In this document: piece after piece, positions 42,349-64,000 of the stretch
Numbering within the stretch: the stretch's first letter is position 1
Layout of the letters: each line of letters begins with the position of its first letter
DNA from: an uncultured Fibrobacteraceae bacterium
Lineage (GTDB): Bacteria > Krumholzibacteriota > Krumholzibacteriia > LZORAL124-64-63
Reading direction: 5' to 3'
Assembly: GCA_964461255.1 (NCBI GenBank)
Contig: CAYWTR010000012.1
Location: forward strand, 3,694 to 67,693
DNA length: 64,000 nucleotides
Notes under the pieces: generated by a model
What the model was told of the DNA's origin: nothing
What the model saw: the letters and a program-made list of their open reading frames with translations, nothing else
The model's database searches: none
Program-made: the position numbers and the translations under genes

Positions 42349-42927
42349 ATGAAGCGCATCCTGACTGGTTCCCTGCTGGTAGTCGCCATCTCCCTCCTGG
42401 CCGTGGTCGCGTTGACGGCGGGCGAACCAAACAGCGGCAGCTGCGGCAGCAAGCCGACCGCCGCCCAGGCCAGCGCCGCCAAGAGCTGCGACACGGCCAA
42501 GGCCGCCCATGCCAGCGACACGGAAAAGAGCGGTTGCAGCCATGGAGCAACGGTCAAGGCGGCGGCCGCCGAGCAGAGCGGCTGCACCGCGGCCAAGCCG
42601 GCCGCGCAGACCGCCGCCGCCGAGGGCAAGGGCTGCGATCCGGCCGCGTGCGCCGCCACGGCCAAGACGGCGGCCGCCACCGAAAAGAGCGGCTGCACGG
42701 CGGCCAAGCCGGCGACGCAGACCGCCGCCACCGAGGGCCAGAAGTGCGATCCGGCCGCGTGCGCCGAGAAAGCCAAGACCGCCGGTGTCGAGTTCGATTG
42801 CGATCCCGCCCTCTGCGCCGAGAAGGGTTGCGATCCGGCCAAGTGCCCCATCGCGACCGCCGCGGCGGCCAAGGCTGCCAAGGACGCGCCGGCCAAGACC
42901 GGCTCGGCCGACAAGGGAACCACCTAG
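42349..42927 (+). CDS. Secreted Cys-rich, Ala-rich tandem-repeat protein (13 Cys; CDPAxC repeats), putative metal-binding
   Basis: 192 aa. AAAGGA SD 7 nt upstream. Signal peptide MKRILTGSLLVVAISLLAVVALTAG. Repeats of EKSGC(T/S)AAKPAxQTAAxEGxxCDPAACAxxAKTA; closing CDPALCAEKGCDPAKCP. Own promoter and strong terminator. Confidence 0.65.
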   Translation: MKRILTGSLLVVAISLLAVVALTAGEPNSGSCGSKPTAAQASAAKSCDTAKAAHASDTEKSGCSHGATVKAAAAEQSGCTAAKPAAQTAAAEGKGCDPAACAATAKTAAATEKSGCTAAKPATQTAATEGQKCDPAACAEKAKTAGVEFDCDPALCAEKGCDPAKCPIATAAAAKAAKDAPAKTGSADKGTT

Positions 42928-48803: not shown

Positions 48804-48811
48804 GTCAGGTT

Positions 48812-48990
48812 ATGCCGCGAAGATTGTGTCCGGACCGGCCGGGTGACGGACCGCGTTGGCGCACTTGGGCTTGCTATCGCGGCATAGATCCTCTGGCTCT
48901 TGCCCCATCTGACACCAACTTCCTGTCTCGAAATGGATTGGGAACTTACCCTTGCCGCCGGCATCCTGCCGGAAACAATCTTCGCGGCAC
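48812..48990. repeat. ~180-bp element with ~20-bp terminal inverted repeats (copy A), MITE-like
   Basis: Termini aTGCCGCGAAGATTGTGTCCGG ... CCGGAAACAATCTTCGCGGCAC are reverse complements. The whole element recurs reverse-complemented at 61297..61476 (~85% identity). It starts 9 nt upstream of the sigma54-regulator start codon. Confidence 0.7.
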
Positions 48991-49024
48991 AAGTCAAGTG
49001 ATGATAGGGCAGGAAATCGTTGTA

Positions 49025-49042
49025 TGCAACATTTATGTTGCA
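49025..49042. promoter_or_regulatory. Perfect palindrome TGCAACAT-TT-ATGTTGCA (candidate operator) in AT-rich island upstream of trxA
   Basis: 8-bp perfect inverted repeat with 2-nt spacer, in the divergent region between the sigma54-regulator gene and trxA. Confidence 0.3.
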
Positions 49043-49280
49043 ACGATTATGCTGCGCAGCCGCGTAAATTCTGGGTGGGGACAATGGGACCGCATTGGGT
49101 GACGGTGCCGATATGTATGTAAAGTATTTTAATTAATACAATTAAGAACCTATACAAGGTCGCGATGATTTCACGAAGAGATGGCATGCACTCTGCTATG
49201 GATGGCGGCGGATAGCTTTTCTGAACTCATGGCGCAACATACCGCAAGGTCGGCGCCGCCCAAGTTGAAAGGAGCGAGCG

Positions 49281-49607
49281 ATGTCGACGGCCCTCAAGGT
49301 GGAAGCCGGAACGTTCGAGCAGGAAGTCATCAAGAGCGACAAGCCGGTGCTTGTCGATTTCTGGGCCCCCTGGTGCGGCCCCTGCAAGATGCTCACCCCG
49401 ACCATCGAGGCTCTCGCGGCGGACTACGCGGGCAGGATCAAGGTGGCCAAGGTGAACGTGGACGACAACCAGGAGCTGGCGGTCCGCTTCGGCATCCGCG
49501 GCATTCCGACGGTCATGGTGTTCAAGGACGGCAAGGCCGTCGAGTCGCTGGTCGGCCTGCGCTCCAAGGAGGAGCTGGCCAAGGTCTTGGACAAGAATCT
49601 GGCCTGA
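49281..49607 (+). CDS. trxA: Thioredoxin
   Basis: 108 aa. AAAGGAG SD. Canonical WCGPC active site; full thioredoxin-1 architecture (VLVDFWAPWCGPCKM...VDDNQELA..FGIRGIPT). Confidence 0.9.
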   Translation: MSTALKVEAGTFEQEVIKSDKPVLVDFWAPWCGPCKMLTPTIEALAADYAGRIKVAKVNVDDNQELAVRFGIRGIPTVMVFKDGKAVESLVGLRSKEELAKVLDKNLA

Positions 49608-49650
49608 GTCGATCCGGTCCGGCCGACGGGCCACGCGGCGACGCGGCAGG

Positions 49651-49688
49651 GGCCGCCGGCGCAAGCGCCGGCGGCCTCGCTTGCTTCA
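49651..49688 (+). terminator. Terminator hairpin after trxA (12-bp stem GGCCGCCGGCGC/GCGCCGGCGGCC, AAG loop, TCGCTTGCTTC tail)
   Basis: Perfect 12-bp stem with 3-nt loop, 44 nt after the trxA stop, followed by a T-rich run. Confidence 0.6.
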
Positions 49689-49763
49689 CCGGCGGCAGCG
49701 ACCGATACTAGAAGGGCGCGGCGCCGCTGCGCGATGCGAGGTCCAGCCAGCCGAGGAGGTGCC

Positions 49764-50660
49764 ATGTCCGGCATCATCGAGGGCGTCAAGGCGCTCTTCA
49801 AGGGGCGCGACGACAAGCCCAACAACATCGTCTTCATCGTCTTCGACAGCTGCCGGCACGACGCCTACCAGGCGGCCCGCCATCCCAACCTCGACCGCAT
49901 CGCCCCCGCGGAGTTGCGCTACAGCTACGCCAGCTGGACCAGCCCCAGCCACTACGTCTTCCTGATGGGGATGATCCCGCACCTGAGCCCCAAGGGGGTG
50001 TTCGCCTCGAACGTCTACCGCGAGGAGTTCGCGCTCTGGTCGCGGCGGCTGAACATCCCGGACGTGGAATTCAAGAAATTCGTGCCGCAGCTGTCGCTGC
50101 CCTACTTCCTGAAGGCGGCCGGCTACTGGTGCGAAGGATGGGTCAGCCTGCCGGTGCTCAATCCGCTGACAAGCATCTCGGCCCATTTCGACAAGTACGA
50201 GCTGGCGCCTTCGCACAACGACCTGCCCGCCATCTTCGCGCAGCTGCAGTTCCGCGACGATCGCCCCAGCTTCTTCTTCATCAACACCGGCGAGACCCAC
50301 TACCCCTACCTGCTGCCGGGCGAGACCGCCGCCGACCTGCCGCACATCCATGGGGTGCACGGCGTGTTCAAGAACCTGGACGATTTCCTGAAGAACCCGT
50401 CCGAGTTCATGAAGGACCGCAAGCAGGAAGAGTTCTTCACCGCCGCCCAGTTCAAGTCGTTCTACGACAAGCAGGTGGCCAACGTGGAATGGCTCGATGG
50501 GGTGGTCGGCGAGTTCATGCAGCGATGCCCGTCCAACACCTACTTCATGATCATGTCAGACCACGGCGAGCTGTTCGGCGAGGACGGCTATTTCGGCCAC
50601 GGACCGATCTTCCACGAAAAGGTCTTCGAGGTCTTCTACCTGGAGGGCAAGCGACCATAG
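49764..50660 (+). CDS. Alkaline-phosphatase-superfamily (sulfatase-like) hydrolase, no signal peptide
   Basis: 298 aa. GAGGAGG SD. IVFIVFDSCRHDAY N-terminal metal/nucleophile region and MIMSDHGELFGEDGYFGHG C-terminal motif typical of the sulfatase/phosphotransferase fold. Exact family unclear. Confidence 0.5.
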   Translation: MSGIIEGVKALFKGRDDKPNNIVFIVFDSCRHDAYQAARHPNLDRIAPAELRYSYASWTSPSHYVFLMGMIPHLSPKGVFASNVYREEFALWSRRLNIPDVEFKKFVPQLSLPYFLKAAGYWCEGWVSLPVLNPLTSISAHFDKYELAPSHNDLPAIFAQLQFRDDRPSFFFINTGETHYPYLLPGETAADLPHIHGVHGVFKNLDDFLKNPSEFMKDRKQEEFFTAAQFKSFYDKQVANVEWLDGVVGEFMQRCPSNTYFMIMSDHGELFGEDGYFGHGPIFHEKVFEVFYLEGKRP

Positions 50661-50694
50661 AGGCCGCCGGTGGCGATGCGCTCGCCGGCGGCCT
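50661..50694. terminator. Bidirectional hairpin (10-bp stem AGGCCGCCGG/CCGGCGGCCT, 14-nt loop) between convergent genes
   Basis: Starts 1 nt after the TAG of the 49764..50660 gene and 27 nt after the stop of the minus-strand BNR protein gene; followed by CTGTCTTCG. Confidence 0.45.
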
Positions 50695-50720
50695 CTGTCT
50701 TCGACGCCGCGCCGTCCCCC

Positions 50721-53700
50721 CTACTCCGGCCGCCAGGCAGGCAGGCGGCCCGGGGTCCATGGCGCGCCCGCGGCCTCAAGGCGATCCTCGACCCGCCTGA
50801 GATCGATCTCGACCAGGGTCCGCAGCCGCGCCAGGACGTCGCCGAAGGCGGCGGCTGCGGTGTCATAGGCCTGGCGGTGCGTGGCGGTCGGCGCCGCGGT
50901 CGAACTCCAGTGGCCGTAGACGATTCCCTGCACGCGCGAGACCAGGCCCATCTTGCCCGGTTCGTTGCGGCGCGGCCGGGTGCGCTCGCCGCGCAGCGCC
51001 TCGGTCAGATCCTGCAGCCGCAGTTCGAGCGCGCGCAGCTCGCCGGCCAGGGCCGGGTCGGCGCCCGGCGTGTCGCGCAGCGCGACCTTGAGATGGTCCA
51101 GGCGCCCGCGCGTCTCGTCGATGGCCTTGTTGGCTCCCAGGACTGCGCGCTGCAGCCTTGCCGTCTTCTGCTGGAAGGCCAGGACCGCTGCCCGATCGGG
51201 CGCCGGCAGCGCGGCGATCCCCAGCGGTTCGGCGGCGAAGGTCTGCGGCTGCCCCAGCGGCGTCACCACGCCGTCGACCCGCTTGGCCAGGGCCACGGTG
51301 TAGCGACCCGGGGCGGCGAGCGGCCCCTCCGGGCCGACGTCCCAGGGATCGCCAGAGCGGGGTTTGAGGTCGGTCGGGTTGGCCGCCGGATAGCGCAGAT
51401 CCCAGGCGACGCGGTGGAAGCCGGCGCCGGTCGGTCCCTCCAGCCTCCGCGCCACGTTGCCGTCCTCGTCGGTGACGGTCAGCAGGATGGCCGGAGCCTC
51501 CTCGCGATCCTCGGCGCGCAGCGCGTCCCAACCGGGGTAGTTAACGTCCTTGCCCGCCTTCTTCAGCTCGCCCTCCTGCGCCTGCCGCTGCTGGCGCCTT
51601 GTCTTGATGTCCTCGGCCAGGCGATAGGTGAAGACCGCCCCGAAAGGCGGGTTGGGCGCCGTGTAGTAGGCGTCGCCCTGCGAGCCCTTCTCCAGCCAGC
51701 CCAGCGGCGAGGCGGGGATGTACATCAGGGCCGTCTTGACCGGGAACAGCGTCGCCTCGGCGGCCAGCAGGGCCGGCGTGACCCGCCGCAGCGGCGTGTA
51801 ATCATCCAGGACGTAGAAGCCGCGGCCGAACGAGGCGCACACCAGATCGTTCTCGCGCCGCTGGATCTCCAGGTCGCGCATGGCGATCGTCGGCACGCCG
51901 CCCTTGAGCTGGGTCCAACGCCGCCCGCCGTCGACCGTGAAGAAGACGCCGAACTCCGTGCCGGCGAACAGCAGCTCCGGATTGACGTGATCCTCGGCCA
52001 GCGCCCACACCGGGCCGCGCGCCGGCAGATCGCCCGCCACCGAGCGCCACGACCGTCCCCGATCGTCGCTGCGCAGGATGTAAGGCTTGAAGTCGGCCAT
52101 CTTGTGGTTGTTGAAGACGGCGTAGACGCGCCCCTCCGCGTGCAGCGACGCCTCCAGGTCGGCGACGTACGTCCGCTCCGGCACGCCGGGGAAGGTCTCC
52201 AGCCGCCGCCAGGTCGTGCCTCCGTCCTCGGTCACCTGCACCAGCCCGTCGTCGGTGCCGACGTAGAGCAGCCCTTCCCGCAGCGGCGATTCGGCCAGCG
52301 ACACGCAGTTGCCGTAGAACGAGGTCGAGGCGTTCTTGGCCACGGTGTCGACGCTCCAGATCCGCCCCATCACCTTCAGCTGGTTGCGGTCGAGCTGGCG
52401 GGTGAGGTCGGGGCTCACCGCGCGCCAGGTGTCGCCGCGATCGTCGCTGCGGAACAGGATGTTGGCGGCGAAGTAGAGCCGCGTGTGCAGGTGCGGGCTG
52501 ATCAGCAGCGGCGAATCCCAGTTCCAGCGCAGCTCGTCGGCGTCCGCCTCCGGCTGCGGCTGGATGTCGATCTGCTCGCCGTTGCGCCTATCGAAGCGCA
52601 CCAGGCCCCCGTGCTGGTACTGCGAGTAGACGATGTCGGGGTCGGTCGGATCGATCTGCGGCTTGAAGCCGTCGCCGCCCAGGGTGACGAACCAGTCGCA
52701 GTTGCGGATGCCGTGGATCGTGTTGGTGCGCGACGGCCCGCCCTGCGTGTTGTTGTCCTGGGTGCCGCCGTAGACGTTGTAGAACGGCAGATCGTTGTCC
52801 AGCGCCACCTTGTAGAACTGCGTCACCGGCAGGTTGGCCTTGTAGGCCCAGGTCGCGCCGCGGTCGAACGACTCGTAGACGCCGCCGTCGCAGCCCGCCA
52901 GCAGGTAGTCGGGATCGTCCGGCGAGAACACCAGGGCGTGGTTGTCCACGTGCTTGAAGCGCTCGCCGACGCGCCGGAAGTTGCGGCCGCCGTCGTCGCT
53001 GACCATCAGCCAGACGTCCATCGAGTAGATGCGGTCGAACTGGTGCGGGTCGGCGTAGATCTCCTGGTAGTACTGCGGGCTGCCGCTGACGTAGCCGCTC
53101 ATGCGTTGCCAGTTCTCGCCGCCGTCGGCCGAGCGGTAGAAGCCGCCGGCATCGCCCACCGATTCGACGATGGCGTAGACCACGTCCGGCCGCTGAGGGC
53201 TGATGGCCAGGCCGATGCGGCCCAGTTCCTCGGACGGCAGCCCCTTGGTGATCTTGCGCCAGCTCGCGCCGCCGTCGGTCGACTTGTGGATCGCGCAGCC
53301 CGGGCCGCCGTCGATCAGCGTCCAGACATGCCGCCGGCGCTGGTACGACGAGGCGTACAGGACGTCCGGATCGCGCGGATCGTGAACCAGGTCGCTGACG
53401 CCGGTGTCGGCGTCGATCGCCAGCACGCGGTTCCAGGTCGCGCCGCCGTCGGTGGTCCTGTAGAGGCCGCGATCGCCGCCCGGCCCCCACAGCGGCCCTT
53501 GCGCCGCGACGTAGACGATGTCCGTGTCGCGCGGGTCGATCACGATCTTGCCGATGTGCTCCGATTCCTTCAGACCGACGTTGGTCCAGGAGCGCCCGCC
53601 GTCGAGCGACTTGTAGACGCCGTCACCGAAGCCGACGCTGCGCTGGCTGTTGTTCTCGCCCGTCCCCACCCAGACGACCAGCGGCCGGCGCGGGTCGACC

Positions 53701-54089
53701 GCCACGCAGCCGATCGAGTAGGAGCCCTCGCCGTCGAAGATCGGCGTCCAGGTCGTGCCGGCGTTGACCGTCTTCCAGACCCCGCCGGAAGCCACCGCCA
53801 CGTACCAGATGCTGCGGTTGGTCGGATCGACCGCGATGTCGCCGATCCGGCCGGACATGAACGCCGGGCCGATCCCGCGCAGAGCCAGGCCGGTGAAGTT
53901 GCCGGCCTGGAAGGGATCCTTGGCATCCGGCCGCTCCGCCCCCGAGCCGCCCTTGGCGGGCGCGGCTGCCGCCGCGGCGGCGGCGGGCGGGGCGGTCATC
54001 ACGGCCGCCGCGGCGGCGGCGAGCGCGAACGTCAGGACCATGACCGCCGCGAGCGGGACGCCCGCGGCGCGAAGGGCACGGCGATGCAT
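50721..54089 (-). CDS. Secreted BNR/Asp-box repeat, sortilin/VPS10-like beta-propeller protein
   Basis: 1122 aa. AGGAG SD. Signal peptide. Numerous S-x-D-x-G-x-T-W Asp-box motifs (SLDGGRSW, TTDGGATW, STDGGASW, SADGGENW, VTEDGGTTW, SDDRGRSW, TVDGGRRW). C-terminal coiled-coil region. Confidence 0.75.
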   Translation of the reverse strand: MHRRALRAAGVPLAAVMVLTFALAAAAAAVMTAPPAAAAAAAAPAKGGSGAERPDAKDPFQAGNFTGLALRGIGPAFMSGRIGDIAVDPTNRSIWYVAVASGGVWKTVNAGTTWTPIFDGEGSYSIGCVAVDPRRPLVVWVGTGENNSQRSVGFGDGVYKSLDGGRSWTNVGLKESEHIGKIVIDPRDTDIVYVAAQGPLWGPGGDRGLYRTTDGGATWNRVLAIDADTGVSDLVHDPRDPDVLYASSYQRRRHVWTLIDGGPGCAIHKSTDGGASWRKITKGLPSEELGRIGLAISPQRPDVVYAIVESVGDAGGFYRSADGGENWQRMSGYVSGSPQYYQEIYADPHQFDRIYSMDVWLMVSDDGGRNFRRVGERFKHVDNHALVFSPDDPDYLLAGCDGGVYESFDRGATWAYKANLPVTQFYKVALDNDLPFYNVYGGTQDNNTQGGPSRTNTIHGIRNCDWFVTLGGDGFKPQIDPTDPDIVYSQYQHGGLVRFDRRNGEQIDIQPQPEADADELRWNWDSPLLISPHLHTRLYFAANILFRSDDRGDTWRAVSPDLTRQLDRNQLKVMGRIWSVDTVAKNASTSFYGNCVSLAESPLREGLLYVGTDDGLVQVTEDGGTTWRRLETFPGVPERTYVADLEASLHAEGRVYAVFNNHKMADFKPYILRSDDRGRSWRSVAGDLPARGPVWALAEDHVNPELLFAGTEFGVFFTVDGGRRWTQLKGGVPTIAMRDLEIQRRENDLVCASFGRGFYVLDDYTPLRRVTPALLAAEATLFPVKTALMYIPASPLGWLEKGSQGDAYYTAPNPPFGAVFTYRLAEDIKTRRQQRQAQEGELKKAGKDVNYPGWDALRAEDREEAPAILLTVTDEDGNVARRLEGPTGAGFHRVAWDLRYPAANPTDLKPRSGDPWDVGPEGPLAAPGRYTVALAKRVDGVVTPLGQPQTFAAEPLGIAALPAPDRAAVLAFQQKTARLQRAVLGANKAIDETRGRLDHLKVALRDTPGADPALAGELRALELRLQDLTEALRGERTRPRRNEPGKMGLVSRVQGIVYGHWSSTAAPTATHRQAYDTAAAAFGDVLARLRTLVEIDLRRVEDRLEAAGAPWTPGRLPAWRPE

Positions 54090-54113
54090 GGCGACTCCTG
54101 GGGGCAGGGGGTG

Positions 54114-55754
54114 TCAGATCTTCGGCCCCGCCCGGCGCACCGATTCGGGGCAGTCGTCGGCGAACTTCTTGAAGTTGTCGATGAAGCGCGAGGCCAGGCC
54201 CCGGTAGCGCTTCATGTACGCATCGGCGCTGGGCCACGAGGCAGCCGGATTCATGACGCCGTCCGGGATGTCCGGGCAGCTCTTGGGCACCTCGAAGCCG
54301 AAGATCGGGTCGACGCCGTAGGGGACGTCCAGCAGCTTGCCGTCGAGGGCGGCGTTGAGCATGGTGCGGGTGTACTTGATGCTGATGCGCTTGCCCACGC
54401 CGTAGGGGCCGCCCACCCAGCCGGTGTTCAGCAGCCAGCAGTTGACGCCGTAGCGCTCGATCTTGCGCCGCAGCAGCTCGGCGTAGTAGGCGGGCCGGTG
54501 CACCATGAAGGGGCCGCCGAAGCAGGTGCTGAACGTGATCTCGGGCTCCTCGCCCAGGCCGATCTCGGTGCCGGCGATCTTCGAGGTGTAGCCGCTGATG
54601 AAGTGGTAGAGCGCCTGGTCAACCGACAGCTTGGCGATCGGCGGCATCACGCCGGAGGCGTCGCAGGTCAGAAGGATGATGTTGCGCGGGTGTCCCCCGC
54701 GCTTTTCGGCCACGGCGTTGTCGATGAACTCCAGGGGGTAGGAAGCCCGCGTGTTCTCGGTCAGCGTGTCGTCGTCCAGATCGATCTTCCGCGTCACCGG
54801 ATCGTAGACCACGTTCTCGAGGATGGTGCCGAAGCGATGGGTGCAGGCGTAGATCTGGGGTTCGGCGCTGGGAGACAGCGCGATCACCTTGGCGTAGCAC
54901 CCGCCCTCGAAGTTGAAGACGCCGTCGTCGCTCCAGCCGTGCTCGTCGTCGCCGATCAGGCCGCGGCCCGGATCCGCCGACAGCGTCGTCTTGCCGGTGC
55001 CGGACAGCCCGAAGAAGAGCGCGGTCTGCCCGTCGCGGCCGACGTTGGCCGAGCAGTGCATGGTCATCACGCCCTGCAGCGGCAGCAGGTAGTTCATGAT
55101 GGTGAAGATGGCCTTCTTGATCTCCCCCCCGTAGCCGCTGTTGCCGATGATGCAAAGCTTCTGGGCGAAGTTGATGGCGATCACGGTCTGGCTGGGAGTC
55201 TGGTCGATCTGGGGAAAGGCCTTGAAGCCGGGGGCGGCGATCACCGTGAAATCGGGCACGTGGCGGCGGTATTCCTCGGCGGTCGCCGGCAGCAGGAACA
55301 TGTTGCGCGCGAACAGGCTGTGCCAGGCCAACTCGGTGACGATGCGCACCGGCAGGCGGTAGGCCTCGTCGGCGCCGCAGTAGCAGTCCTGCACGAAGAC
55401 ATCGCGCCCCTGCAGATAACCCTGCACGCGGTTGAACAGGTCGTTGAACTTGTCCATCGGGTAGGGGCGATTGTACTGCCCCCACCAGATGTGCTCCTCG
55501 GTGCTCGGCTCGCGCACGACCAGCTTGTCGTTGGCGGCCCGCGCGGTGTGCTTGCCGGTGGCGACCACCAGCGGCCCGTGGCGAGACAGACGCCCCTCGC
55601 CGCGGAAGACGGCCTCTTCGTAGAGCGCCTCGGATGGCAGGTTCCAGTAGACACGGTTCAGATCCACCAGGCCGTGGTTGACCAGCCCGAGGTCGGCCTT
55701 GAGCGCCGCCGCCTGCCCCTCGCTCGGCGTCTTGATGTCGAGGATGTTGTTCAT
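54114..55754 (-). CDS. pckA: Phosphoenolpyruvate carboxykinase (ATP)
   Basis: 546 aa. GAGGGA SD. Kinase-1a FFGLSGTGKTTLS. PEPCK-ATP specific blocks (GYTSKIAGTE, HCSANVG, IGDDEHGW). ATG overlaps the aminotransferase stop (ATGA). Confidence 0.9.
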   Translation of the reverse strand: MNNILDIKTPSEGQAAALKADLGLVNHGLVDLNRVYWNLPSEALYEEAVFRGEGRLSRHGPLVVATGKHTARAANDKLVVREPSTEEHIWWGQYNRPYPMDKFNDLFNRVQGYLQGRDVFVQDCYCGADEAYRLPVRIVTELAWHSLFARNMFLLPATAEEYRRHVPDFTVIAAPGFKAFPQIDQTPSQTVIAINFAQKLCIIGNSGYGGEIKKAIFTIMNYLLPLQGVMTMHCSANVGRDGQTALFFGLSGTGKTTLSADPGRGLIGDDEHGWSDDGVFNFEGGCYAKVIALSPSAEPQIYACTHRFGTILENVVYDPVTRKIDLDDDTLTENTRASYPLEFIDNAVAEKRGGHPRNIILLTCDASGVMPPIAKLSVDQALYHFISGYTSKIAGTEIGLGEEPEITFSTCFGGPFMVHRPAYYAELLRRKIERYGVNCWLLNTGWVGGPYGVGKRISIKYTRTMLNAALDGKLLDVPYGVDPIFGFEVPKSCPDIPDGVMNPAASWPSADAYMKRYRGLASRFIDNFKKFADDCPESVRRAGPKI

Positions 55755-56968
55755 AGCCAGTCCCTCACCAGCTTGCGGTCGCCGATATAGATCTCGTTCG
55801 GACTGTTCGGGTCGAGCGCCCACTTGATGCGTTCGATGCCGGTCATGAGGTCCTTGACCGTGCCGCCGTAGCTCAGGCGCAGGTGCCCCTCCATGCCGAA
55901 CTCCTTGCCTGGCACCGTGACCACCATGGCCTTGCGCAGCAGGAACTCGCACAGCTCCAGCGAATTGTTGCTGTAGGCGCGGAAATCGGGCAGGCAGTAG
56001 AAGGTGCCGCCCGGCCTGACGCAGCGCACGCCGCTGAAAGACTTGAGCTCCTGCATGATGACGTTGCGGTTGTTCTCCATGGTCTGCCGCAGGCTCTCGA
56101 CCACGCTCTGCAGGCCGTTGAGCGCTCCCTCGGCCGCCGCCTGCAGCACGGTGGCGGTGCACGACGTCGTCTGCGCCTGCACGTTGTTCATCACCTGCAC
56201 CAGCTTTCGGTTGGCCACCACCCAGCCCACCCGGAAGCCGGTCATGCCGTACAGCTTCGACACCCCGTTGACCGTGATCACCATCGTCGCTTCGAGGTCG
56301 CGCTTGGTATGGGCGTACGCCGGGACGGCGCGCTGCCCGTCGAACACGAGCTTGTGGTAGATGTCATCGGCGATCAGATAGATCTGCCGCCGCTCGCAGA
56401 AATCGACGATCTCGGCCAGGAACTCCTCGCTGTACACCACGCCCGAGGGGTTGTTGGGGCTGTTGACGATGATCGCCCGCGTGTAGGGCCCGACCACCCG
56501 TTCGATGTCGGCCAGCCGCGGCTGGAAGCTGCCGTCCTCCGGCGTCACCACCACCGGCACCCCGTAGCACATCTTGACCATCTCGGGGTAGCTGACCCAG
56601 TAGGGCGCCAGCAGGATGACCTCGTCCTGCGGATTGAGGATGCTGAAGAGCAGGTTGAACAGCGACAGCTTGGCGCCGGCCGAAACGATCACGTTCTCCG
56701 GCGCGGCGACGCGGTCGTAATTCTCTTCCGTGTACCGGATGATCGCCTTCTTCAGCGACGGCAGGCCGTCCGAGGGCGCGTACTTCACCTCCCCGCTGCT
56801 CAGGCGCGCGGCCGAGTTGAGGATGGCGTTGATGGGCGCCTTGTTCTTCGGCTCCCCGATGCCGAGGTGGATGACCGCCTCTCCCTTTTCCCTGAGGATG
56901 CGCGCCTCCTCGTTGAGCCGCAGCGTGGGCGACTCGGCGATGGCGCTGGCGAGTTTGCTGAGGATCAT
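55751..56968 (-). CDS. Pyridoxal-phosphate-dependent aminotransferase (class I, aspartate aminotransferase-like)
   Basis: 405 aa. Fold-type I pattern with PLP-Lys context NGVSKLYGMTGFRVGW; NPSGVVY; C-terminal R in SYG. Confidence 0.85.
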   Translation of the reverse strand: MILSKLASAIAESPTLRLNEEARILREKGEAVIHLGIGEPKNKAPINAILNSAARLSSGEVKYAPSDGLPSLKKAIIRYTEENYDRVAAPENVIVSAGAKLSLFNLLFSILNPQDEVILLAPYWVSYPEMVKMCYGVPVVVTPEDGSFQPRLADIERVVGPYTRAIIVNSPNNPSGVVYSEEFLAEIVDFCERRQIYLIADDIYHKLVFDGQRAVPAYAHTKRDLEATMVITVNGVSKLYGMTGFRVGWVVANRKLVQVMNNVQAQTTSCTATVLQAAAEGALNGLQSVVESLRQTMENNRNVIMQELKSFSGVRCVRPGGTFYCLPDFRAYSNNSLELCEFLLRKAMVVTVPGKEFGMEGHLRLSYGGTVKDLMTGIERIKWALDPNSPNEIYIGDRKLVRDWL

Positions 56969-57151
56969 GGCTCGTCGCTGCTCCCGGGGTCGGATAAAAG
57001 CACGGACCGCCGACCTGTCACGGCTGCCCGCTGCCGGTCAGCGGCCGAAGGAGGGCCGATGCGAACCCACGCGCCAAATCTATGCCGCGCTCCGCGGGGC
57101 GTCAATGCCGATGGGCGCGGGTCGATGGGGGCGGGCGGCCCGCGACGTCCC

Positions 57152-57180
57152 TTGACCGCCGGCACCCGCCAATCTATGTT
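57152..57180 (+). promoter_or_regulatory. Candidate sigma70 promoter TTGACC-N17-TATGTT for the antiporter gene
   Basis: Hexamers at 57152-57157 and 57175-57180 in the divergent intergenic region; the -10 overlaps one copy of a CGCCAA(A)TCTATG direct repeat. Confidence 0.35.
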
Positions 57181-57337
57181 GCCCCGGTCAGGGGATGGAG
57201 TCCCCCGTCAACCGCCCTCTTGGGGCTGATGACTCCTGTAGGAAGCTGGGCAGAGGGCCTCTTCTGCCCGCACGGCAACCGCAGGATGTTGGCCCGCTCA
57301 GGCGGCCCGTCGATCCGGATCCCGGGAGGACTCCCCC

Positions 57338-58588
57338 ATGCAAAGCGCCTTCGCCCTGGCTTTCTTCTGGCTCGCCCTGGCCGTTCTCGCCACCATCCTG
57401 GCCAACCGCATGCGCGTCTCAATGGCGCTGGTCGAGATCTGTGTCGGCGTCGCCGCCGCCGCCGTCGTGACCCGCTGGCTGGGTCCGCAGGCCTTGGGCG
57501 CCGATCAGGACTGGCTGCGATTCGTCGCCGCCATGGGCGCGGTGCTGTTGACCTTCCTGGCAGGCGCCGAACTCGACCCCACGGTCCTGCGCGCAAAATT
57601 GCGCGAGGTGCTCGTGGTCGGGCTGATCAGCTTCCTGGCGCCCTTCCTCTTCTGCGCCGCCGTGGCGCACTGGCTGCTGGGGTGGAACGGGCCGCAGAGC
57701 TGGCTGGCCGGCGTGGCGCTGTCCACCACGTCGATGGCGGTCGTCTACGCGGTGATGCTGGAATACGGCTTCAACCGCACCGAATTCGGCAAGGGCATCC
57801 TGGGCGCCTGCTTCATCACCGATCTCGGCACCGTTATCGCCCTGGGCCTGCTGTTCGCGCCCTTCTCGCGCCGTTCGATCATCTTCATCGCTGTCTGCGC
57901 CGTCACCTTCGCCCTGCTGCCCGTCGTGACCGCTGCGCTGACCCGCTGGTTCGGGCACCGCACAGCCGCCATCCGCACCAAGTGGATCCTGATGGTGCTG
58001 TGCGGCCTGGGCGCCCTGGCGCTGTGGGCCGGCAGCGAGGCGGTTCTGCCGGCTTACATCGCCGGCATGATCCTGGCCGGCACGGTCAGCCGCGATCAAT
58101 TCTTCATCCGCCGCCTGCGCACCCTGACCATCGGTTTTCTCACCCCGTTCTATTTCCTGCGCGCGGGTTCGCTGGTGTCGCTGCCGTCGCTCGCCGCCGC
58201 CCCGCTGGTGATCCTGGTTCTGCTGGCCGCCAAGATCGCCTCGAAGGTGTTCGGGCTGCATCCGGTCATCAGCCTCTTCCGCGCGCAGGCGCGCGAGCGC
58301 TGGTACTACACCCTGCTGATGTCGACAGGGTTGACCTTCGGCACGATCTCGGCGCTGTACGGTCTGTCCAACGGCATCATCAGCCAGGAGCAGTATTCGA
58401 TCCTGGTCATCGTGGTGATCGCCAGCGCCGTGGTCCCCACGCTGATCGCCAATGCTTTCTTCCTGCCCAGCCACCTGCTGCCGGCTCGGCCAACCGCCGA
58501 CGAGGAGCTGACCTTGCTCGACCGGGAGACGACCGGACCCACGGCCGCGCCCGCCAGCGACCACGCCAATGGCCTGCAGAACGAATGA
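57338..58588 (+). CDS. Cation:proton antiporter (CPA1/CPA2 family Na+/H+ exchanger)
   Basis: 416 aa. GGGAGGA SD. 11-13 TM helices with CPA signatures (LLTFLAGAELD, FFLRAGSLVSL). No C-terminal regulatory domain. Confidence 0.8.
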   Translation: MQSAFALAFFWLALAVLATILANRMRVSMALVEICVGVAAAAVVTRWLGPQALGADQDWLRFVAAMGAVLLTFLAGAELDPTVLRAKLREVLVVGLISFLAPFLFCAAVAHWLLGWNGPQSWLAGVALSTTSMAVVYAVMLEYGFNRTEFGKGILGACFITDLGTVIALGLLFAPFSRRSIIFIAVCAVTFALLPVVTAALTRWFGHRTAAIRTKWILMVLCGLGALALWAGSEAVLPAYIAGMILAGTVSRDQFFIRRLRTLTIGFLTPFYFLRAGSLVSLPSLAAAPLVILVLLAAKIASKVFGLHPVISLFRAQARERWYYTLLMSTGLTFGTISALYGLSNGIISQEQYSILVIVVIASAVVPTLIANAFFLPSHLLPARPTADEELTLLDRETTGPTAAPASDHANGLQNE

Positions 58589-58922
58589 AACGCGCGCGCC
58601 GCGCGCGAAGACGGCCGGCGCCGCTGCTCTTCGAATTGATGGCATGCAAACAACCTGGAGATTCTACCCGGGTAAAATCCAGGAGTTTCTGCGAGCATTG
58701 AGAGAGAACGAGCGGCAAACAGCCAGCGGATTTCGCCGCACGATCGGATTCATCCCGGCCAGTGGGGCGCCAGCTTGGGCCCGAGAGACCGCCATCGCAT
58801 GGCGCGCCGGCCACGCGCTGGCCACACGCGCTGGCCGCGACTGGCCCTGCGTGACCGATCCTGGTATCGTCTGGTGGAAACCTGCCCGACCCCCAAGCCG
58901 CCCTCGATCCCGGAGACCGCTC

Positions 58923-59744
58923 ATGCATTTCCAGACCGTGACGCACATGCGCTGTCAGGCGACGGCAACGGGGCACGGCCACGCCGGAATCCAGGCACGC
59001 CGCCCGGCCGCGGACCCAGCGCGCCGTCCGGCCGCGCCCCGGCCGGCGGATTCCCGCGCGGCGAGCCTCGCGACGGCGCTGTGCGCGCTCGCGCTCCTGG
59101 TTCCAGGCCTCGTCCCGGCCGTCCTGCCCACTCACGACGAGCCGACTCGCACCCTCTATCTCATCCGCCACGGGGAGTACGACCGCCAGAGCGCCGGCTG
59201 CAACCCCGCGGACGAGTGCGGGCTCGTGGCTCTGGGCCGCCAGCAGGCGCGCCTGTTGGCGGACCGCCTCGTGGCCATGCCGATCGCCTTCACCTCGCTC
59301 CAGACCAGCACCATGATCCGCGCCCGCGAGACCGCGGCGCTCATCGCCGAGCGCTTCCCCGACCTGGCTCCGTCCGGACACGACGACCTGCGCGAGTGCA
59401 CCCCGCCGACGCGCCGCGCCGACATCATGGCCGGCCTCGAGCCCGGTCATGCCGCGGACTGCGCCGCGACCCTGGCGGCGGCCTGGGCGCGGCTGGCCCG
59501 TCCGGCCGGCGGACCGCACGACGAGCACGATCTGTTCGTCTGCCACGGCAACGTCATCCGCTGGTTCGTCTGCCAGGCGCTGGAGGTCGATCCTGCCGCC
59601 TGGCTCGGCATGAGCATCGCCAACTGCAGCCTGACGATCGTGCAGATCCGCGCCGACGGCTCGGCCAAGCTCCTCGCCTTCGCCGACTCGGGGCACCTGC
59701 CCTATTCGATGACGACCTATCCGGGAGTGGCGGCCCCGCGGTGA
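58923..59744 (+). CDS. Histidine phosphatase family protein (phosphoglycerate-mutase-like), probably exported
   Basis: RHG motif LYLIRHGE; second catalytic His in LFVCHGNVIRW; hydrophobic signal-like segment ALCALALLVPGLVPA. Start at 58923 (GGAG upstream) rather than upstream in-frame ATGs, which have A/T-ending codons. Confidence 0.65.
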   Translation: MHFQTVTHMRCQATATGHGHAGIQARRPAADPARRPAAPRPADSRAASLATALCALALLVPGLVPAVLPTHDEPTRTLYLIRHGEYDRQSAGCNPADECGLVALGRQQARLLADRLVAMPIAFTSLQTSTMIRARETAALIAERFPDLAPSGHDDLRECTPPTRRADIMAGLEPGHAADCAATLAAAWARLARPAGGPHDEHDLFVCHGNVIRWFVCQALEVDPAAWLGMSIANCSLTIVQIRADGSAKLLAFADSGHLPYSMTTYPGVAAPR

Positions 59745-59834
59745 TCGCGAGCCGAGCCGCGAGCGTGCGGCGGCCTGCCCGTGGCGCCCGGACGCCGGGA
59801 CACCTCGGCCGCGCAGCGGCGTGCGCGCCGCCCG

Positions 59835-60245
59835 TCAGAGCCGGATCAGCCTGGCAGCCTGCGACTGCCGCGTCAGAATCTCCACCATGTTGGACGCTCG
59901 TCCGATCGCCAGCCGGTCGACCAGGCCGAAATAATCGAGGCAGGTGCCGCAGCAGAGGACCTCGACGCCGAGATCCGCCAGCGCCCGCAGGTCGTCAAGG
60001 GCGGCCGAGCCCGAGCAGCAGAGCTTGACGCCCGCGTTCATGAACAGCAAGCAGGCCGGCGGCTGCGGCAGTTTGGCCAGGCTCCTCAGGGCCGACAACA
60101 TGAGCGCCGCGCCCAGATCGTCGTCGCCGCGCCCTAGCCGGTCGGACGCGATGAAGATGACGGGGGGCGCGGTCGGCGTTTCCGGCTGCACGGCGCGGGC
60201 CGCCGCCTGGGCGGCCGAGCGGTCGGGTGGCGAAGCCTCGTTCAC
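59835..60245 (-). CDS. DsrE/DsrF-like sulfur-relay family protein (resembles C-terminal domain of YedF selenium-metabolism protein)
   Basis: 136 aa from GTG 60245 (GAAGGAG SD). CLLFMNAGVKL...LADLGVEVLCCGTCLDYFGL...ASNMVEIL pattern typical of DsrE-fold proteins. Confidence 0.55.
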   Translation of the reverse strand: MNEASPPDRSAAQAAARAVQPETPTAPPVIFIASDRLGRGDDDLGAALMLSALRSLAKLPQPPACLLFMNAGVKLCCSGSAALDDLRALADLGVEVLCCGTCLDYFGLVDRLAIGRASNMVEILTRQSQAARLIRL

Positions 60246-60394
60246 GTCGCTCCTTCGGGATCGCGCGCCAGCGAGAAGATCACTGGCCGCCGCGCCCGAA
60301 CAATCAGCAGCGAGGCGCGGGGCGTCAAGCGGGTTGTGGTGCGGCGGCCACGGCTGGGCCGCCGGCGGCGCGCCTGCCGGCGGCGCGGGCCGCC

Positions 60395-61084
60395 TCAGAC
60401 GCCGATGGTGTCGAAGTAGCGCCGCAGCTCGTCCTTCATCGCCGCCATCGAGTCGGCGACGAACAGGATCGAATTGAATTCCCAGACCGACTTCTCGTGC
60501 TTGATGATGTTGTCGACCGTGAAGGGCTCCAGCGGCGTGCCGCCGGACATCACCTTGTCGGTCTCGGCGGCGGAGGAGATCAGGCCGGCCCCGAACAGCT
60601 TCAGCCGGCCGTCCTCGCGCAGCAAGCCGAACTCGGTGCTGTACCAGGCCAGCCGCTTGACGTTCTCGCGCTGCTGCTCGTCGCCGCGCAGGAAGGCGGG
60701 CGCGAACAGTTCCTCCAGCTCGGCGTACGCGGGCAGGGTCATGAACGGCAGGTGCCCGAAGATGTCGTGGAACATGTCCGGTTCGGGGGTGAAATCGAGC
60801 TCGGGCCAGTCGCGCATGTAGTCGGTGATCAGGAACTGCTTGCGGGCGAACTGCTCGTACCACGCCTCGGCGGTCGAGTAGCGGACGTTGGTGCGGACCG
60901 TGCGCCAGCCGGTGGCCGGCGTGATGCGCGCGTTGAGCTGCTCGAGCGATGGGATCGTCTCGCGCGGGATCTGCAGCCGCTGGAATCCATCCAGATACTC
61001 CCGGCAGGCGTGCTGCTGGATGCGCGGCAGCATGCGGTCATGCAGCGTGCGCCAGATCTTGTGCTGGTCCTCGGTGAACTCCAT
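60395..61084 (-). CDS. phhA: Phenylalanine-4-hydroxylase (aromatic amino acid hydroxylase catalytic domain)
   Basis: 229 aa from ATG 61084 (GAGGAGGG SD). Iron-binding 2-His-1-carboxylate signature PDMFHDIFGHLPFM ... WYSTEFGL. Confidence 0.75.
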   Translation of the reverse strand: MEFTEDQHKIWRTLHDRMLPRIQQHACREYLDGFQRLQIPRETIPSLEQLNARITPATGWRTVRTNVRYSTAEAWYEQFARKQFLITDYMRDWPELDFTPEPDMFHDIFGHLPFMTLPAYAELEELFAPAFLRGDEQQRENVKRLAWYSTEFGLLREDGRLKLFGAGLISSAAETDKVMSGGTPLEPFTVDNIIKHEKSVWEFNSILFVADSMAAMKDELRRYFDTIGV

Positions 61085-61296
61085 GCCCGACCCTCCTCGG
61101 GGATTCGGCGCGCCGCCCCAGGGTGCACCAGTGCGCGCCCAACGGGCGGGAAAAGAGACCGGCGCCACATCCAGCATATAATAAGGAGGGGGGCCAATTC
61201 AATACACAATTAATCTTTGTTTCAATAATTGATTATCGATCAAAGAGTTATAATACTTCCGGAGTTGTCGTCTAATATTTGTACAGGCATTGACTT

Positions 61297-61476
61297 GTGC
61301 CGCGAAGATTGTTTCCAGCAGGATGCCTGCGGCAAGGAGAACTACAAAATCCATTATGGGACAATAACTTGCTTTCAGATGGAGCAGGAGCCATAGGATC
61401 ACGTGCCGCGATGGCAAGATCAAGTGCGCCAATGCGATCCGTCACCCGCCCGGTCCGGACACAATCTTCGCGGCAC
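61297..61476. repeat. ~180-bp TIR element (copy B), reverse-complement of copy A at 48812..48990
   Basis: GTGCCGCGAAGATTGTTTCCAG...CCGGACACAATCTTCGCGGCAC. Internal blocks (ATGGATT, CTTGCCGC.GGCATCCTGC, GGTGACGGA.CGC.TTGGCGCACTTG) conserved with copy A. Flanked by a strongly AT-rich stretch (61190-61296). Confidence 0.7.
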
Positions 61477-61605
61477 AACCTAACCACTGGCTGTGCGACG
61501 GCGACGTGTCCCGCGACGCCGACCCGCGCGGCCAGGGCTGCCTGCCCCTGGACGAGGTCGTCTACGACCGCGGCTTCGGCGGGTGAGACGCGCCTGGCCG
61601 CGCCG

Positions 61606-62388
61606 TCAGCGCTGACCATCCTCCCACAGGGCCGCCGGATCCTGGCAGTAGTAGCGCCGCAGCTGCGAGTAAAGCTCCGGATGGCGCCGGCGCAGGGCGT
61701 GGGGCTGTTCGAAGAAGAACTCGGTCGCCACGGCGAAGAACTCGGCGGGATTCTCGGCGCCGTATTCGTCGAGCAGTCCCGGGCGGCCCCGCCGCGTCCG
61801 CTGCAGCAGCGCCTCGTACTCGCGGCCCAGCACGCGCAGCCAGTCGGCCAGCTGCTCGCGATCGGCCAGCGGCGGCACCCCGTCCGATTCGCCGCTCTCC
61901 TCATCGAGCTGGTGGGCGAACTCGTGGTAGACCACGTTCCAGCCGTCCAGCGGATCGGCCGCGCCCTCGACGGCGTCCTGCCAGGACAGGATCACCGTGC
62001 CATGCCCCCACGATTCGCCGGGACGCTCGCCCATGTCCTCGGTGACCAGGCCGTCCTCCTCCTCGATGAGCTCGCCGGTGACGAACGCCTCGGGATACAC
62101 CAGGATCGATTGCAGGCGCGGGTAGATGTCGGTCTCGCGCCCCAGCAGCAAGACGCACGCCTGCGCGGCGATCGCCAGCCGCACCTCCTCGGTCAGCTCG
62201 AGGCCGCCGCACCCTTCGAAATTCTTCTCCGCCAGGAAGACCTGCATCAGTCCCTGCAGTTCGCGGCGCTGCTGCGGAGGCAGGCGGCGGTAGTAGGGCA
62301 CGTGGCGGGAGATGACATCGTCCCAGTGAGCGGGGACCGGCTGCGCGCGCAGCCGGGCGCGGCGGCGCTTCTTCATCAGACCGAACAT
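61606..62388 (-). CDS. MtfA-like zinc metallopeptidase (M90 family)
   Basis: 260 aa. HEXXH in VVYHEFAHQLD with the downstream ENPAEFFAVATEFFFE pattern characteristic of MtfA/M90 proteins. Confidence 0.6.
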   Translation of the reverse strand: MFGLMKKRRRARLRAQPVPAHWDDVISRHVPYYRRLPPQQRRELQGLMQVFLAEKNFEGCGGLELTEEVRLAIAAQACVLLLGRETDIYPRLQSILVYPEAFVTGELIEEEDGLVTEDMGERPGESWGHGTVILSWQDAVEGAADPLDGWNVVYHEFAHQLDEESGESDGVPPLADREQLADWLRVLGREYEALLQRTRRGRPGLLDEYGAENPAEFFAVATEFFFEQPHALRRRHPELYSQLRRYYCQDPAALWEDGQR

Positions 62389-62606: not shown

Positions 62607-64000
62607 ATGATCCTCCGCCAAGCCTGCCGCGCCCGCCGCGGTGCCGCCGCGCCCGCGCGCTCGATGACCCTCGGGCTGCTGGGCGCCGTCATGGGCACCG
62701 CCGCCGTCGTGTTCGTGGCCGCCGCCCCCGCCGCCGCCGCGCCGCGCGCGGTGTTGGGCGAGCTGTTCTCGTCCGACGGCTGACCGTACTGCCCTTCCGC
62801 GGTCGCGGGAATCAGGCAGCTCGCTCAGGAATACGACGCGACGGCTTTCGTGCCCGTCACCTGGTACACATCCGCCCCCTACGCTTTCCCCGAGGGGGTG
62901 CAGCGCTTCTCCTGGCTCGGCTTCTCCGGCACCCCCAGCGCCATGTTCGACGGCTACGACGCCGTGGTGGGGGGCATGCCGGCCGGTTCGATGTACAGCA
63001 GCTACGCGCCTATCGTCGCCGCTCACCTGGCCGCCGACAGTCCGCTGGCGATGTCGGCCCAGTACGCCTTGCTGGGGACGACCGGCATGATCAACGTCCA
63101 CATCGAGGTGACCGCGGCGGTGACCACGACCAGCAACCAGGTGCATTTCGTGATCGTGGAGGACCAGGCCCACAGCCAGGTCAACCTGGCGCGGCGAAAG
63201 CTGGCCAACGAATCGTTCCTGCTGACGCAGCCGGGCCAGAGCGTCGACATCGCCCGCGAGTTCACGCTCGAGGCGGGCTGGGATCCGGACCGGATCGGGA
63301 TCGTGGTCTTCGTGCAGAGCCACGCCGGCAACAAGGCGGTGCTGCAGGCCGCGAAGGCAGTCCCGAACTACGCCGCGACCGTGGTGATCGACGCCGAGCC
63401 CGACGGCCTGGACGCCGGCTGGCATCTGAGCGGACCGTACGGCCTGTCGCTCAGCGGCAGCGGCGACAAGACGCTGCCGGTCTTCGCCGCCGGCGAGCAC
63501 ACGCTCGCCTGGCAGCAGGTCGCGGGCTGGACGACGCCGTCCCCCGCCACCCAGACGCTCGACGCGCCGGTCGGCGGCACCATCACCTTCGCGGGGCTGT
63601 ACACCGGCGGGGCCTTCGCCGCCGTCACGGCCGGTCCGCTCGGCGCCGCCGGCGCGGGCCGCGGCGTCAGCCTGATCGACGCCGACGGAGACGGCGACCT
63701 GGACATCTACGTCGTCAACCACCTGCAGTCCAACCGGCTGCTGCGCAACGACGGCGGCGGCCTCTTCACCGACATCGCCGCCGGCGCCCTGGCCGACGCG
63801 GGCCCCGCGGGCGGCGCCGCCTGGGCCGACTACGACAACGACGGCGACATGGACCTCTACCTGGCGCGCGACGGGCAGGCCAATCTGCTGCTGCGCAACG
63901 ACGGCGGCGTCTTCAGCGACGCCACCACCACGACGATCGCCGACGCCGGACCCGGACGCGCCGTCTGCTGGGCCGACTTCAACAACGACGGGCTGGTCGA
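62607..64000 (+). CDS. Candidate secreted selenoprotein (3'-partial): signal peptide – Sec(UGA 62781) – PYC thiol/selenol redox motif – globular domain – FG-GAP repeats
   Basis: AAGGAGAA SD then ATG 62607. 58-aa signal-peptide-like N-terminus ends ...LGELFSSDG followed by in-frame TGA. The same frame stays open with protein-like sequence for 405 more codons to the window edge (PYCPSAVAGIRQLAQEY...; DADGDGDLDIYVVNHLQSNRLLRNDGG.. FG-GAP-type repeats). SECIS-like hairpin follows the TGA. Confidence 0.5.
62789..62819 (+). other. SECIS-like stem-loop (bacterial type) 6 nt downstream of UGA 62781
   Basis: CUGCC-C-UUCCGC-[GGUC]-GCG(G)GAA-UCA-GGCAG: ~15 bp of pairing with an apical GGUC loop whose G/U fall at positions 21-23 from the UGA, similar to E. 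coli fdhF geometry. Confidence 0.4.

Follow-up and report, generated by a model that had tools for sequence, protein, structure and literature searches.

The two inverted repeats described here, separated by 12.3 kb of the window (our name for the whole 64-kb stretch of DNA analysed), are most probably (at a probability of about 0.85) ~188-bp non-coding, non-autonomous derivatives (MITEs) of a 1.21-kb IS1-like insertion-sequence (IS) family. Each copy is shorter than 1 kb, lacks transposase coding and is closed by terminal inverted repeats (TIRs) that also bound transposase-encoding elements; a flanking target duplication is present at neither copy. Evidence for this reading comes from the repeat structure and its boundaries, from TIRs that are the same as the termini of transposase-encoding elements, and from deletion derivatives that are siblings of the window copies. 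The element is an ordinary relic of mobile DNA, of a kind already known and not a new system, and its parent family is common in uncultured bacteria, including Krumholzibacteria.

Extent and boundaries of the two copies

Copy B (61293–61480, plus strand) is 188 bp long and has a GC content of ~55% in a 72% GC genome, and copy A (48808–48994, minus strand) is 187 bp long and inverted relative to copy B. A pairwise alignment of the two loci that took in 300 bp of DNA to either side returned one block of ~190 nt with ~86% identity and a single 1–2-nt indel, on opposite strands, which agrees with the description of copy B in the earlier note as copy A turned round. A repeat search of the window likewise yielded two adjoining pairs of inverted arms, 48887–48997/61290–61400 (111 nt, 83%) and 48804–48884/61404–61484 (81 nt, 90%), and from the search and the alignment positions 61290–61486 of the plus strand pair with positions 48804–48999 of the minus strand. 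These two copies are the ones known in the window, and no further copy of their interior sequence was found in a scan of species-representative genomes, to which the source genome does not belong, or in a metagenome scan.

Beyond the TIRs, the copies remain alike for just 5–6 nt (TTGAC at one end, CCTRAC at the other end). In both orientations, the flanks further out align only as well as shuffled sequence does (local alignment scores of 17 against 16.5 ± 2.1, and of 19 against 20.7 ± 3.1). Since the similarity ends near the TIRs and the flanks are unrelated, the element is discrete and not a segmental duplication. That similarity stops just outside the terminal repeats had already been proposed; the earlier note had also named similarity running far into both flanks as the mark of a segmental duplication, and none was seen in the 300-bp-flank alignment. 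The 5–6 nt that are common beyond the TIRs speak against the MITE reading, as simple independent transposition does not explain them. The ends of copy B were placed 2 nt outside TTGTGCC...GGCACAA, by a rule taken from full-length relatives, so that the span 61297–61476 initially given for it falls within the element but is slightly short.

TIRs of 24–26 nt close both ends of each copy. Their 19-mer TGCCGCGAAGATTGTKTCC has four occurrences in the window, one at either end of copy A and of copy B, where 0.00 are expected (100 shuffles). The outer (“right”) TIR of copy B (61455–61480), which reads GGTTGTGCCGCGAAGATTGTGTCCGG on the minus strand, has the canonical GGnnnTG terminus, shows 0 mismatches to the working TIR and is identical to the IS-only consensus at 23 of 26 positions. 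The inner (“left”) TIR of the same copy (61293–61318, plus strand; ACTTGTGCCGCGAAGATTGTTTCCAG) agrees with the IS-end consensus at 19 of 26. At copy A, the corresponding sequences are GGTTATGCCGCGAAGATTGTGTCCGG for the outer (“right”-type) TIR at 48808–48833 on the plus strand and ACTTGTGCCGCGAAGATTGTTTCCGG for the inner (“left”-type) TIR at 48969–48994 on the minus strand. The inner TIRs open with AC, not with the RG of the family, and have lost the canonical terminal G. Taken over all four window TIRs, identity to the IS-end consensus is 19–23/26, and the IS ends themselves range from 15 to 24 of 26.

Inspection of every plausible boundary of copies A and B revealed neither a 9-bp nor any other direct repeat. 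A duplication swapped by inversion was also looked for, and the outer flank of copy A does not match the inner flank of copy B taken in reverse complement. Target duplications are absent from five of eight full-length and two of three short relatives as well, and their absence is thus not unusual for the family. No transposase remnant was detected in either copy with tblastn and profile hmmsearch in six frames, and no transposase homologue lies within the 64-kb window. No Rfam family was matched by the element, in a search of the whole window at the gathering threshold and in a permissive search of 61100–61650 that gave nothing credible at E ≤ 10. The sole Rfam match in the window is a fluoride riboswitch (crcB motif, RF01734) at 57182–57245 on the plus strand, with 55.4 bits against a gathering threshold of 34. 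The window also contains a tandem pair of 111-nt units with 86% identity at 42558–42779.

The parent IS1-like family

We scanned one genome per species, from 185,579 species, for the TIR 19-mer and obtained 16 loci, mostly single chance or coding matches. At one of them, L001 (1829–3040), a pair of TIRs 1.21 kb apart encloses an ORF of 368 amino acids. Its family comprises >3,700 protein clusters among the matches listed (E ≤ 1e-3), with lengths of 365–373 amino acids; several members carry the source name “IS1 family transposase” or “transposase-like”, most are unnamed, and many are encoded on contigs of 1.2–1.5 kb. Besides L001, nine further family-encoding loci were taken, which represent seven independent insertions. 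All seven end alike, in RGTTSTGCC..AAGATTGTGTCCGG, with the consensus gGTTGTGCC.C.AAGATTGTGTCCGG. Both ends are present in eight insertions including L001, which measure 1209–1219 bp, and a ninth, L041, has the upstream end only. The TIR GGTTGTGCCGCGAAGATTGTGTCCGG agrees with the ends of ~1.21-kb transposase-encoding elements, all of which reside in other metagenome-assembled genomes (MAGs). A corresponding TIR scan of metagenomes gave 18 loci, all of them single matches with non-family flanking bases in apparently conserved coding sequences, and no new members.

Target duplications of 9 bp flank three of the eight full-length insertions, namely L042 (CAAGGATTA), L043 (CGAGTACTA/G) and L049 (GTTTTCTTT). 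Together with that of the short element L014 described below, they fix the termini of the element 2 nt outside TTGTGCC...GGCACAA. An identical 368-residue transposase, P0117, is found with identical TIRs in two contexts (L057/L059 and L058) from related lake metagenomes, which indicates recent transposition within the family. The P0117 copies in both contexts have CCTAT just past the right end, and this suggests that the right terminus or the target may include TA. In L042 (2888–3970), the IS1-like element adjoins a second transposase gene, of the Transposase_mut (IS256) type.

Comparison of the family alignment with E. coli InsA by hhalign gave a probability of 92% (E = 6.6e-7) for the N-terminus of the transposase, and the family has invariant Cys and His residues at C16, C21, H24, C53 and C56. 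No similarity to InsB was found for the same alignment (hhalign probability 1.8%). With the NCBIfam model transpos_IS1 the score is 22 bits, where the cut-off is 100, and the matches to ISL3 and IS1 N-terminal models are also sub-threshold. Pfam returned weak, sub-threshold HTH matches and no model above threshold in the catalytic region. An AlphaFold (AF2) model of the transposase (pLDDT 82) has its PDB matches among retroviral integrases and the ISCth4 and Mos1 transposases (E values from 6e-5 to 1e-3), and this predicted structure indicates an RNase-H/DDE-like fold for the catalytic part.

The IS1 family has been described as having GGnnnTG ends and direct repeats of 8–9 bp (PMC10425158 table 8; PMC6807381; PMC12428005), and the GGTTGTG ends and 9-bp duplications of the parent agree with these published descriptors. 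Like IS1, the parent elements thus combine GGnnnTG ends and, in some insertions, 9-bp duplications with TIRs of ~25–30 bp and an InsA-like zinc finger plus HTH. They differ from IS1 in their length of 1.21 kb, in one uninterrupted ORF of ~368 codons and in the lack of profile similarity to InsB. The insA/insB −1 frameshift is absent, with a single ORF of 365–373 residues in every copy examined. The parent is best called IS1-like, of a single-ORF type; it shows neither InsB-like sequence nor the frameshift. We take this single-ORF layout to resemble the ISMhu11 subgroup of ISfinder.

Short relatives, mobilisation and age

Three other loci from the species-genome scan, in MAGs of Krumholzibacteria, contain TIR pairs ~125–225 bp apart in intergenic DNA (L006, 5208–5336; L014, 860–987; L015, 5668–5889). 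These short elements have the same TIR as the window element (19–22 of 26 positions agree with the IS consensus), are similar to it in size and likewise intergenic, but their interiors are unrelated to it. L014 has a clean 9-bp target duplication (CATTGACAG). In L015, coding sequence for the first ~40 transposase residues persists (E = 3.7e-9), which makes this element an internal-deletion derivative.

Mobilisation of the window element would have occurred in trans. A full-length copy would supply the transposase (~368 residues, DDE), whose zinc-finger/HTH N-terminus would bind the 24–26-bp TIRs, and the bound element would then be transferred to a new site, typically with formation of a 9-bp target duplication. 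For IS1 itself, PMC12428005, with reference to Ohta 2004, states that the InsA-type domain binds the inverted repeats and that DNA carrying IRL and IRR alone can transpose. The two window copies look old, because they diverge from each other by 14%, lack a target duplication and have inner ends that read AC, not RG. They are probably old and immobile insertions.

Genomic setting of the two copies

The neighbours of copy B are a phhA-like gene (Biopterin_H domain; 60395–61087, minus strand) on one side and, on the other, an MtfA-like gene (Peptidase_M90 domain) with its 3′ end towards the element; the earlier note had named the same two genes. The AT-rich island beside copy B (61180–61292), which does not belong to the element, is on the upstream side of the phhA-like gene, and short AT-rich palindromes occur in it. 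The DNA to the left of copy B had been singled out as the most AT-rich in the window, and rightly so, as 61196–61295, with 29% GC, are the lowest 100 nt of a window that averages 71.7%. Copy A is located between a gene for a PAS/sigma-54 activator (minus strand; Sigma54_activat and PAS domains) and a thioredoxin gene (plus strand). The ATG of the activator gene (48803) is 4 nt from the outer end of the element, and a Shine-Dalgarno sequence is absent. A second AT-rich island (48995–49205) occupies the divergent region between the activator and thioredoxin genes beside this copy, and includes the second-lowest 100 nt of the window (49106–49205, 37% GC).

The earlier note had pointed to sigma-70-like hexamers in the island of copy B and had suggested that the element landed in, or brought, a promoter region. 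The hexamers are there (TTGATT at 61229–61234 and TATAAT at 61249–61254), but the spacer between them is 14 nt instead of 16–18 nt, and a scan of both strands for the sigma-70 consensus gave 0 sites in 61000–61700 and none around copy A. The promoter reading is hence not upheld. Nor is there any sign that the AT-rich DNA moves together with the element, as the two AT-rich flanks have unrelated sequences and no TIR lies beyond them. A search for a sigma-54 promoter upstream of the phhA-like gene was likewise negative.

At both loci it is the inner end of the element that borders on an AT-rich island, and the two island sequences are unrelated. We considered whether the islands could be part of a longer mobile unit and rejected this, since the flanks share no similarity and no additional TIR is present within 500–600 bp on either side. 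The islands would instead be native regulatory DNA between genes that was there before the insertions and received or tolerated them. For classical IS1, a preference for AT-rich targets has been reported. The island of copy A contains palindromes (TGCAAC..GTTGCA at 49025–49042 and AT-rich ones at 49118–49156) and a sigma-54-like −24/−12 match, TGGCATGCACTCTGCT, at 49182–49197 (TGGCAT-N5-CTGCT), ~85 nt upstream of the thioredoxin gene. Its sequence resembles a native promoter region that depends on an activator and has a bending site, although sigma-54-like matches are no commoner in the window than chance predicts (14 found, 23.7 expected), which makes the site at 49182–49197 a lead only.

To the right of copy B, positions 61481–61586 of the plus strand form a coding-like tail of ~35 codons with G or C at every third position and a stop at 61584–61586. 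The tail is oriented away from copy B and is convergent with the MtfA-like gene; an internal GTG is its sole start candidate, and it is in frame with an open frame across the element. A query of 40 residues from this tail found no homologue, and the tail is unlike the convergent neighbours of MtfA genes in relatives. The tail may have been left behind by a gene that disappeared when the element inserted. The closest homologues of the MtfA-like protein are at most 63% identical, and the genes downstream of them are different.

Contigs of the same species, 99.3–100% identical and derived from nine sequencing runs, break at the termini of the element. Around copy B (n = 6) they end at 61449 or 61294, and around copy A (n = 7) at 48971 or 48992. 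The exact repeats common to A and B at the termini are 26–27 nt long, which is shorter than the k of 31 that these short-read assemblies presumably use, so that the A/B pair by itself would not break the assembly graph. For this reason, the breaks suggest further near-identical termini or copies, or to alternative alleles, in those samples. Three same-species contigs also end at 63841, inside coding repeats that occupy 63700–64000 and are by eye of the FG-GAP/VCBS-like type (LLRNDGGG..F.D).

Alternative origins and functions

An exapted function as RNA was weighed against the MITE reading. The element could have become a structured RNA leader or small RNA, a hairpin closed by the TIRs and transcribed from the AT-rich DNA, which would control the gene to its right, at copy A the sigma-54 activator and at copy B a short ORF. 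Both strands do fold better than shuffled sequences (z = −4.9 and −3.7), but this z-score is mostly due to the TIR stem, and of 56 predicted pairs just one has changed on both sides between the two copies. The order of parts is the same at both loci, with the AT-rich island followed by the element in the same orientation and by coding sequence that reads away from it, and at copy A the start codon of the activator is only 4 nt away, without a Shine-Dalgarno sequence. However, two copies share an orientation by chance in 50% of cases, the ORF to the right of copy B has neither a start codon nor a homologue, and there is no Rfam match for the element and no consensus promoter beside either copy. 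We regard this reading as unlikely. Other bacterial MITEs are known to alter expression through promoters and RNA hairpins (PMC10969869). If transcription crosses copy A, the mRNA for the activator would contain a TIR hairpin in its 5′ leader, and there is a small residual possibility that copy A now serves, by co-option, as leader of the sigma-54 activator gene. A broader form of co-option, in which copy A makes up the whole of this leader, the TIR hairpin serves as a post-transcriptional switch (for instance as an RNase III target or a block to translation) and the pair mediates inversion of the 12.3-kb segment, has a similarly slim chance of being correct.

The inverted arrangement could also mean that the MITE copies delimit a 12.7-kb unit (48808–61480), a composite transposon or an acquired island, that moved as a whole. 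The canonical GG termini do face outward and the degenerate AC termini inward, and the lowest-GC stretch of 12.3 kb in the window starts at 49083 and thus nearly coincides with the segment between the copies (67.7% GC, against 72.8% to the left); the coding block at 49281–61087, with 68.4% GC, is below every stretch of the same size in 1–48700 (minimum 71.3%). Against this, no 9-bp duplication surrounds the unit (outer flanks CTCATGTCA and TAACCACTG), and the copies are just 86% identical. The GC3 of interior genes (0.91–0.95) equals that of exterior genes (0.90–0.93), and the tetranucleotide correlation between interior and exterior chunks (r = 0.88–0.93) is that of exterior chunks among themselves (0.87–0.92). 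The interior genes are housekeeping-like (thioredoxin, phhA-like), and the activator just outside faces the sigma-54-like promoter match just inside. A foreign origin of 48995–61292 was rejected on account of its native GC3 and tetranucleotide signature and the missing flanking duplication. With both signatures native, the low GC of the segment between the copies reflects protein composition and not foreign origin. A composite unit is thus very improbable. Even less credence is due to an origin that did not involve mobility, either as a segmental duplication or as a pair of operator sites of a regulator. There are just two copies in the window, they have 5–6 nt in common beyond the TIRs, and target duplications are absent, as such an origin would have it; yet the similarity stops at the TIRs, and the same 24–26-nt ends bound transposase genes as well as short elements on unrelated contigs from several phyla-level bins. 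Both the segmental duplication and the operator pair are refuted by the ends held in common with transposase-encoding elements.

Discussion

Interpreted as MITEs, the two copies join a well-populated class. Correia elements of Neisseria, MITEAba12 of Acinetobacter, ERIC and RUP are ~100–400 bp long, non-coding, TIR-bounded and intergenic (PMC10969869, PMC6382973), and prokaryotic MITEs often lie just upstream of genes, have TIRs that are also those of an autonomous IS, and can form long hairpins if transcribed (PMC10969869, PMC6382973). The window element resembles these four in being short, non-coding and intergenic and in having TIRs in common with autonomous IS. It differs from them in its sequence family, in its host lineage (uncultured, with 72% GC) and in its parent IS; furthermore, the window copies have no detected internal sigma-70 promoter or IHF site and have preserved no target duplication.

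The finding reveals no new mechanism. The identification as MITEs accounts for two repeats that are discordant in AT/GC content with their surroundings, and for recurrent assembly breaks, in an uncultured high-GC bacterium. It also flags a sigma-54 activator gene for a putative transposon-derived leader. Finally, it ties a 26-nt end to a very large family of IS1-like transposases, whose MITEs and IS copies can be found in metagenomes by their ends.
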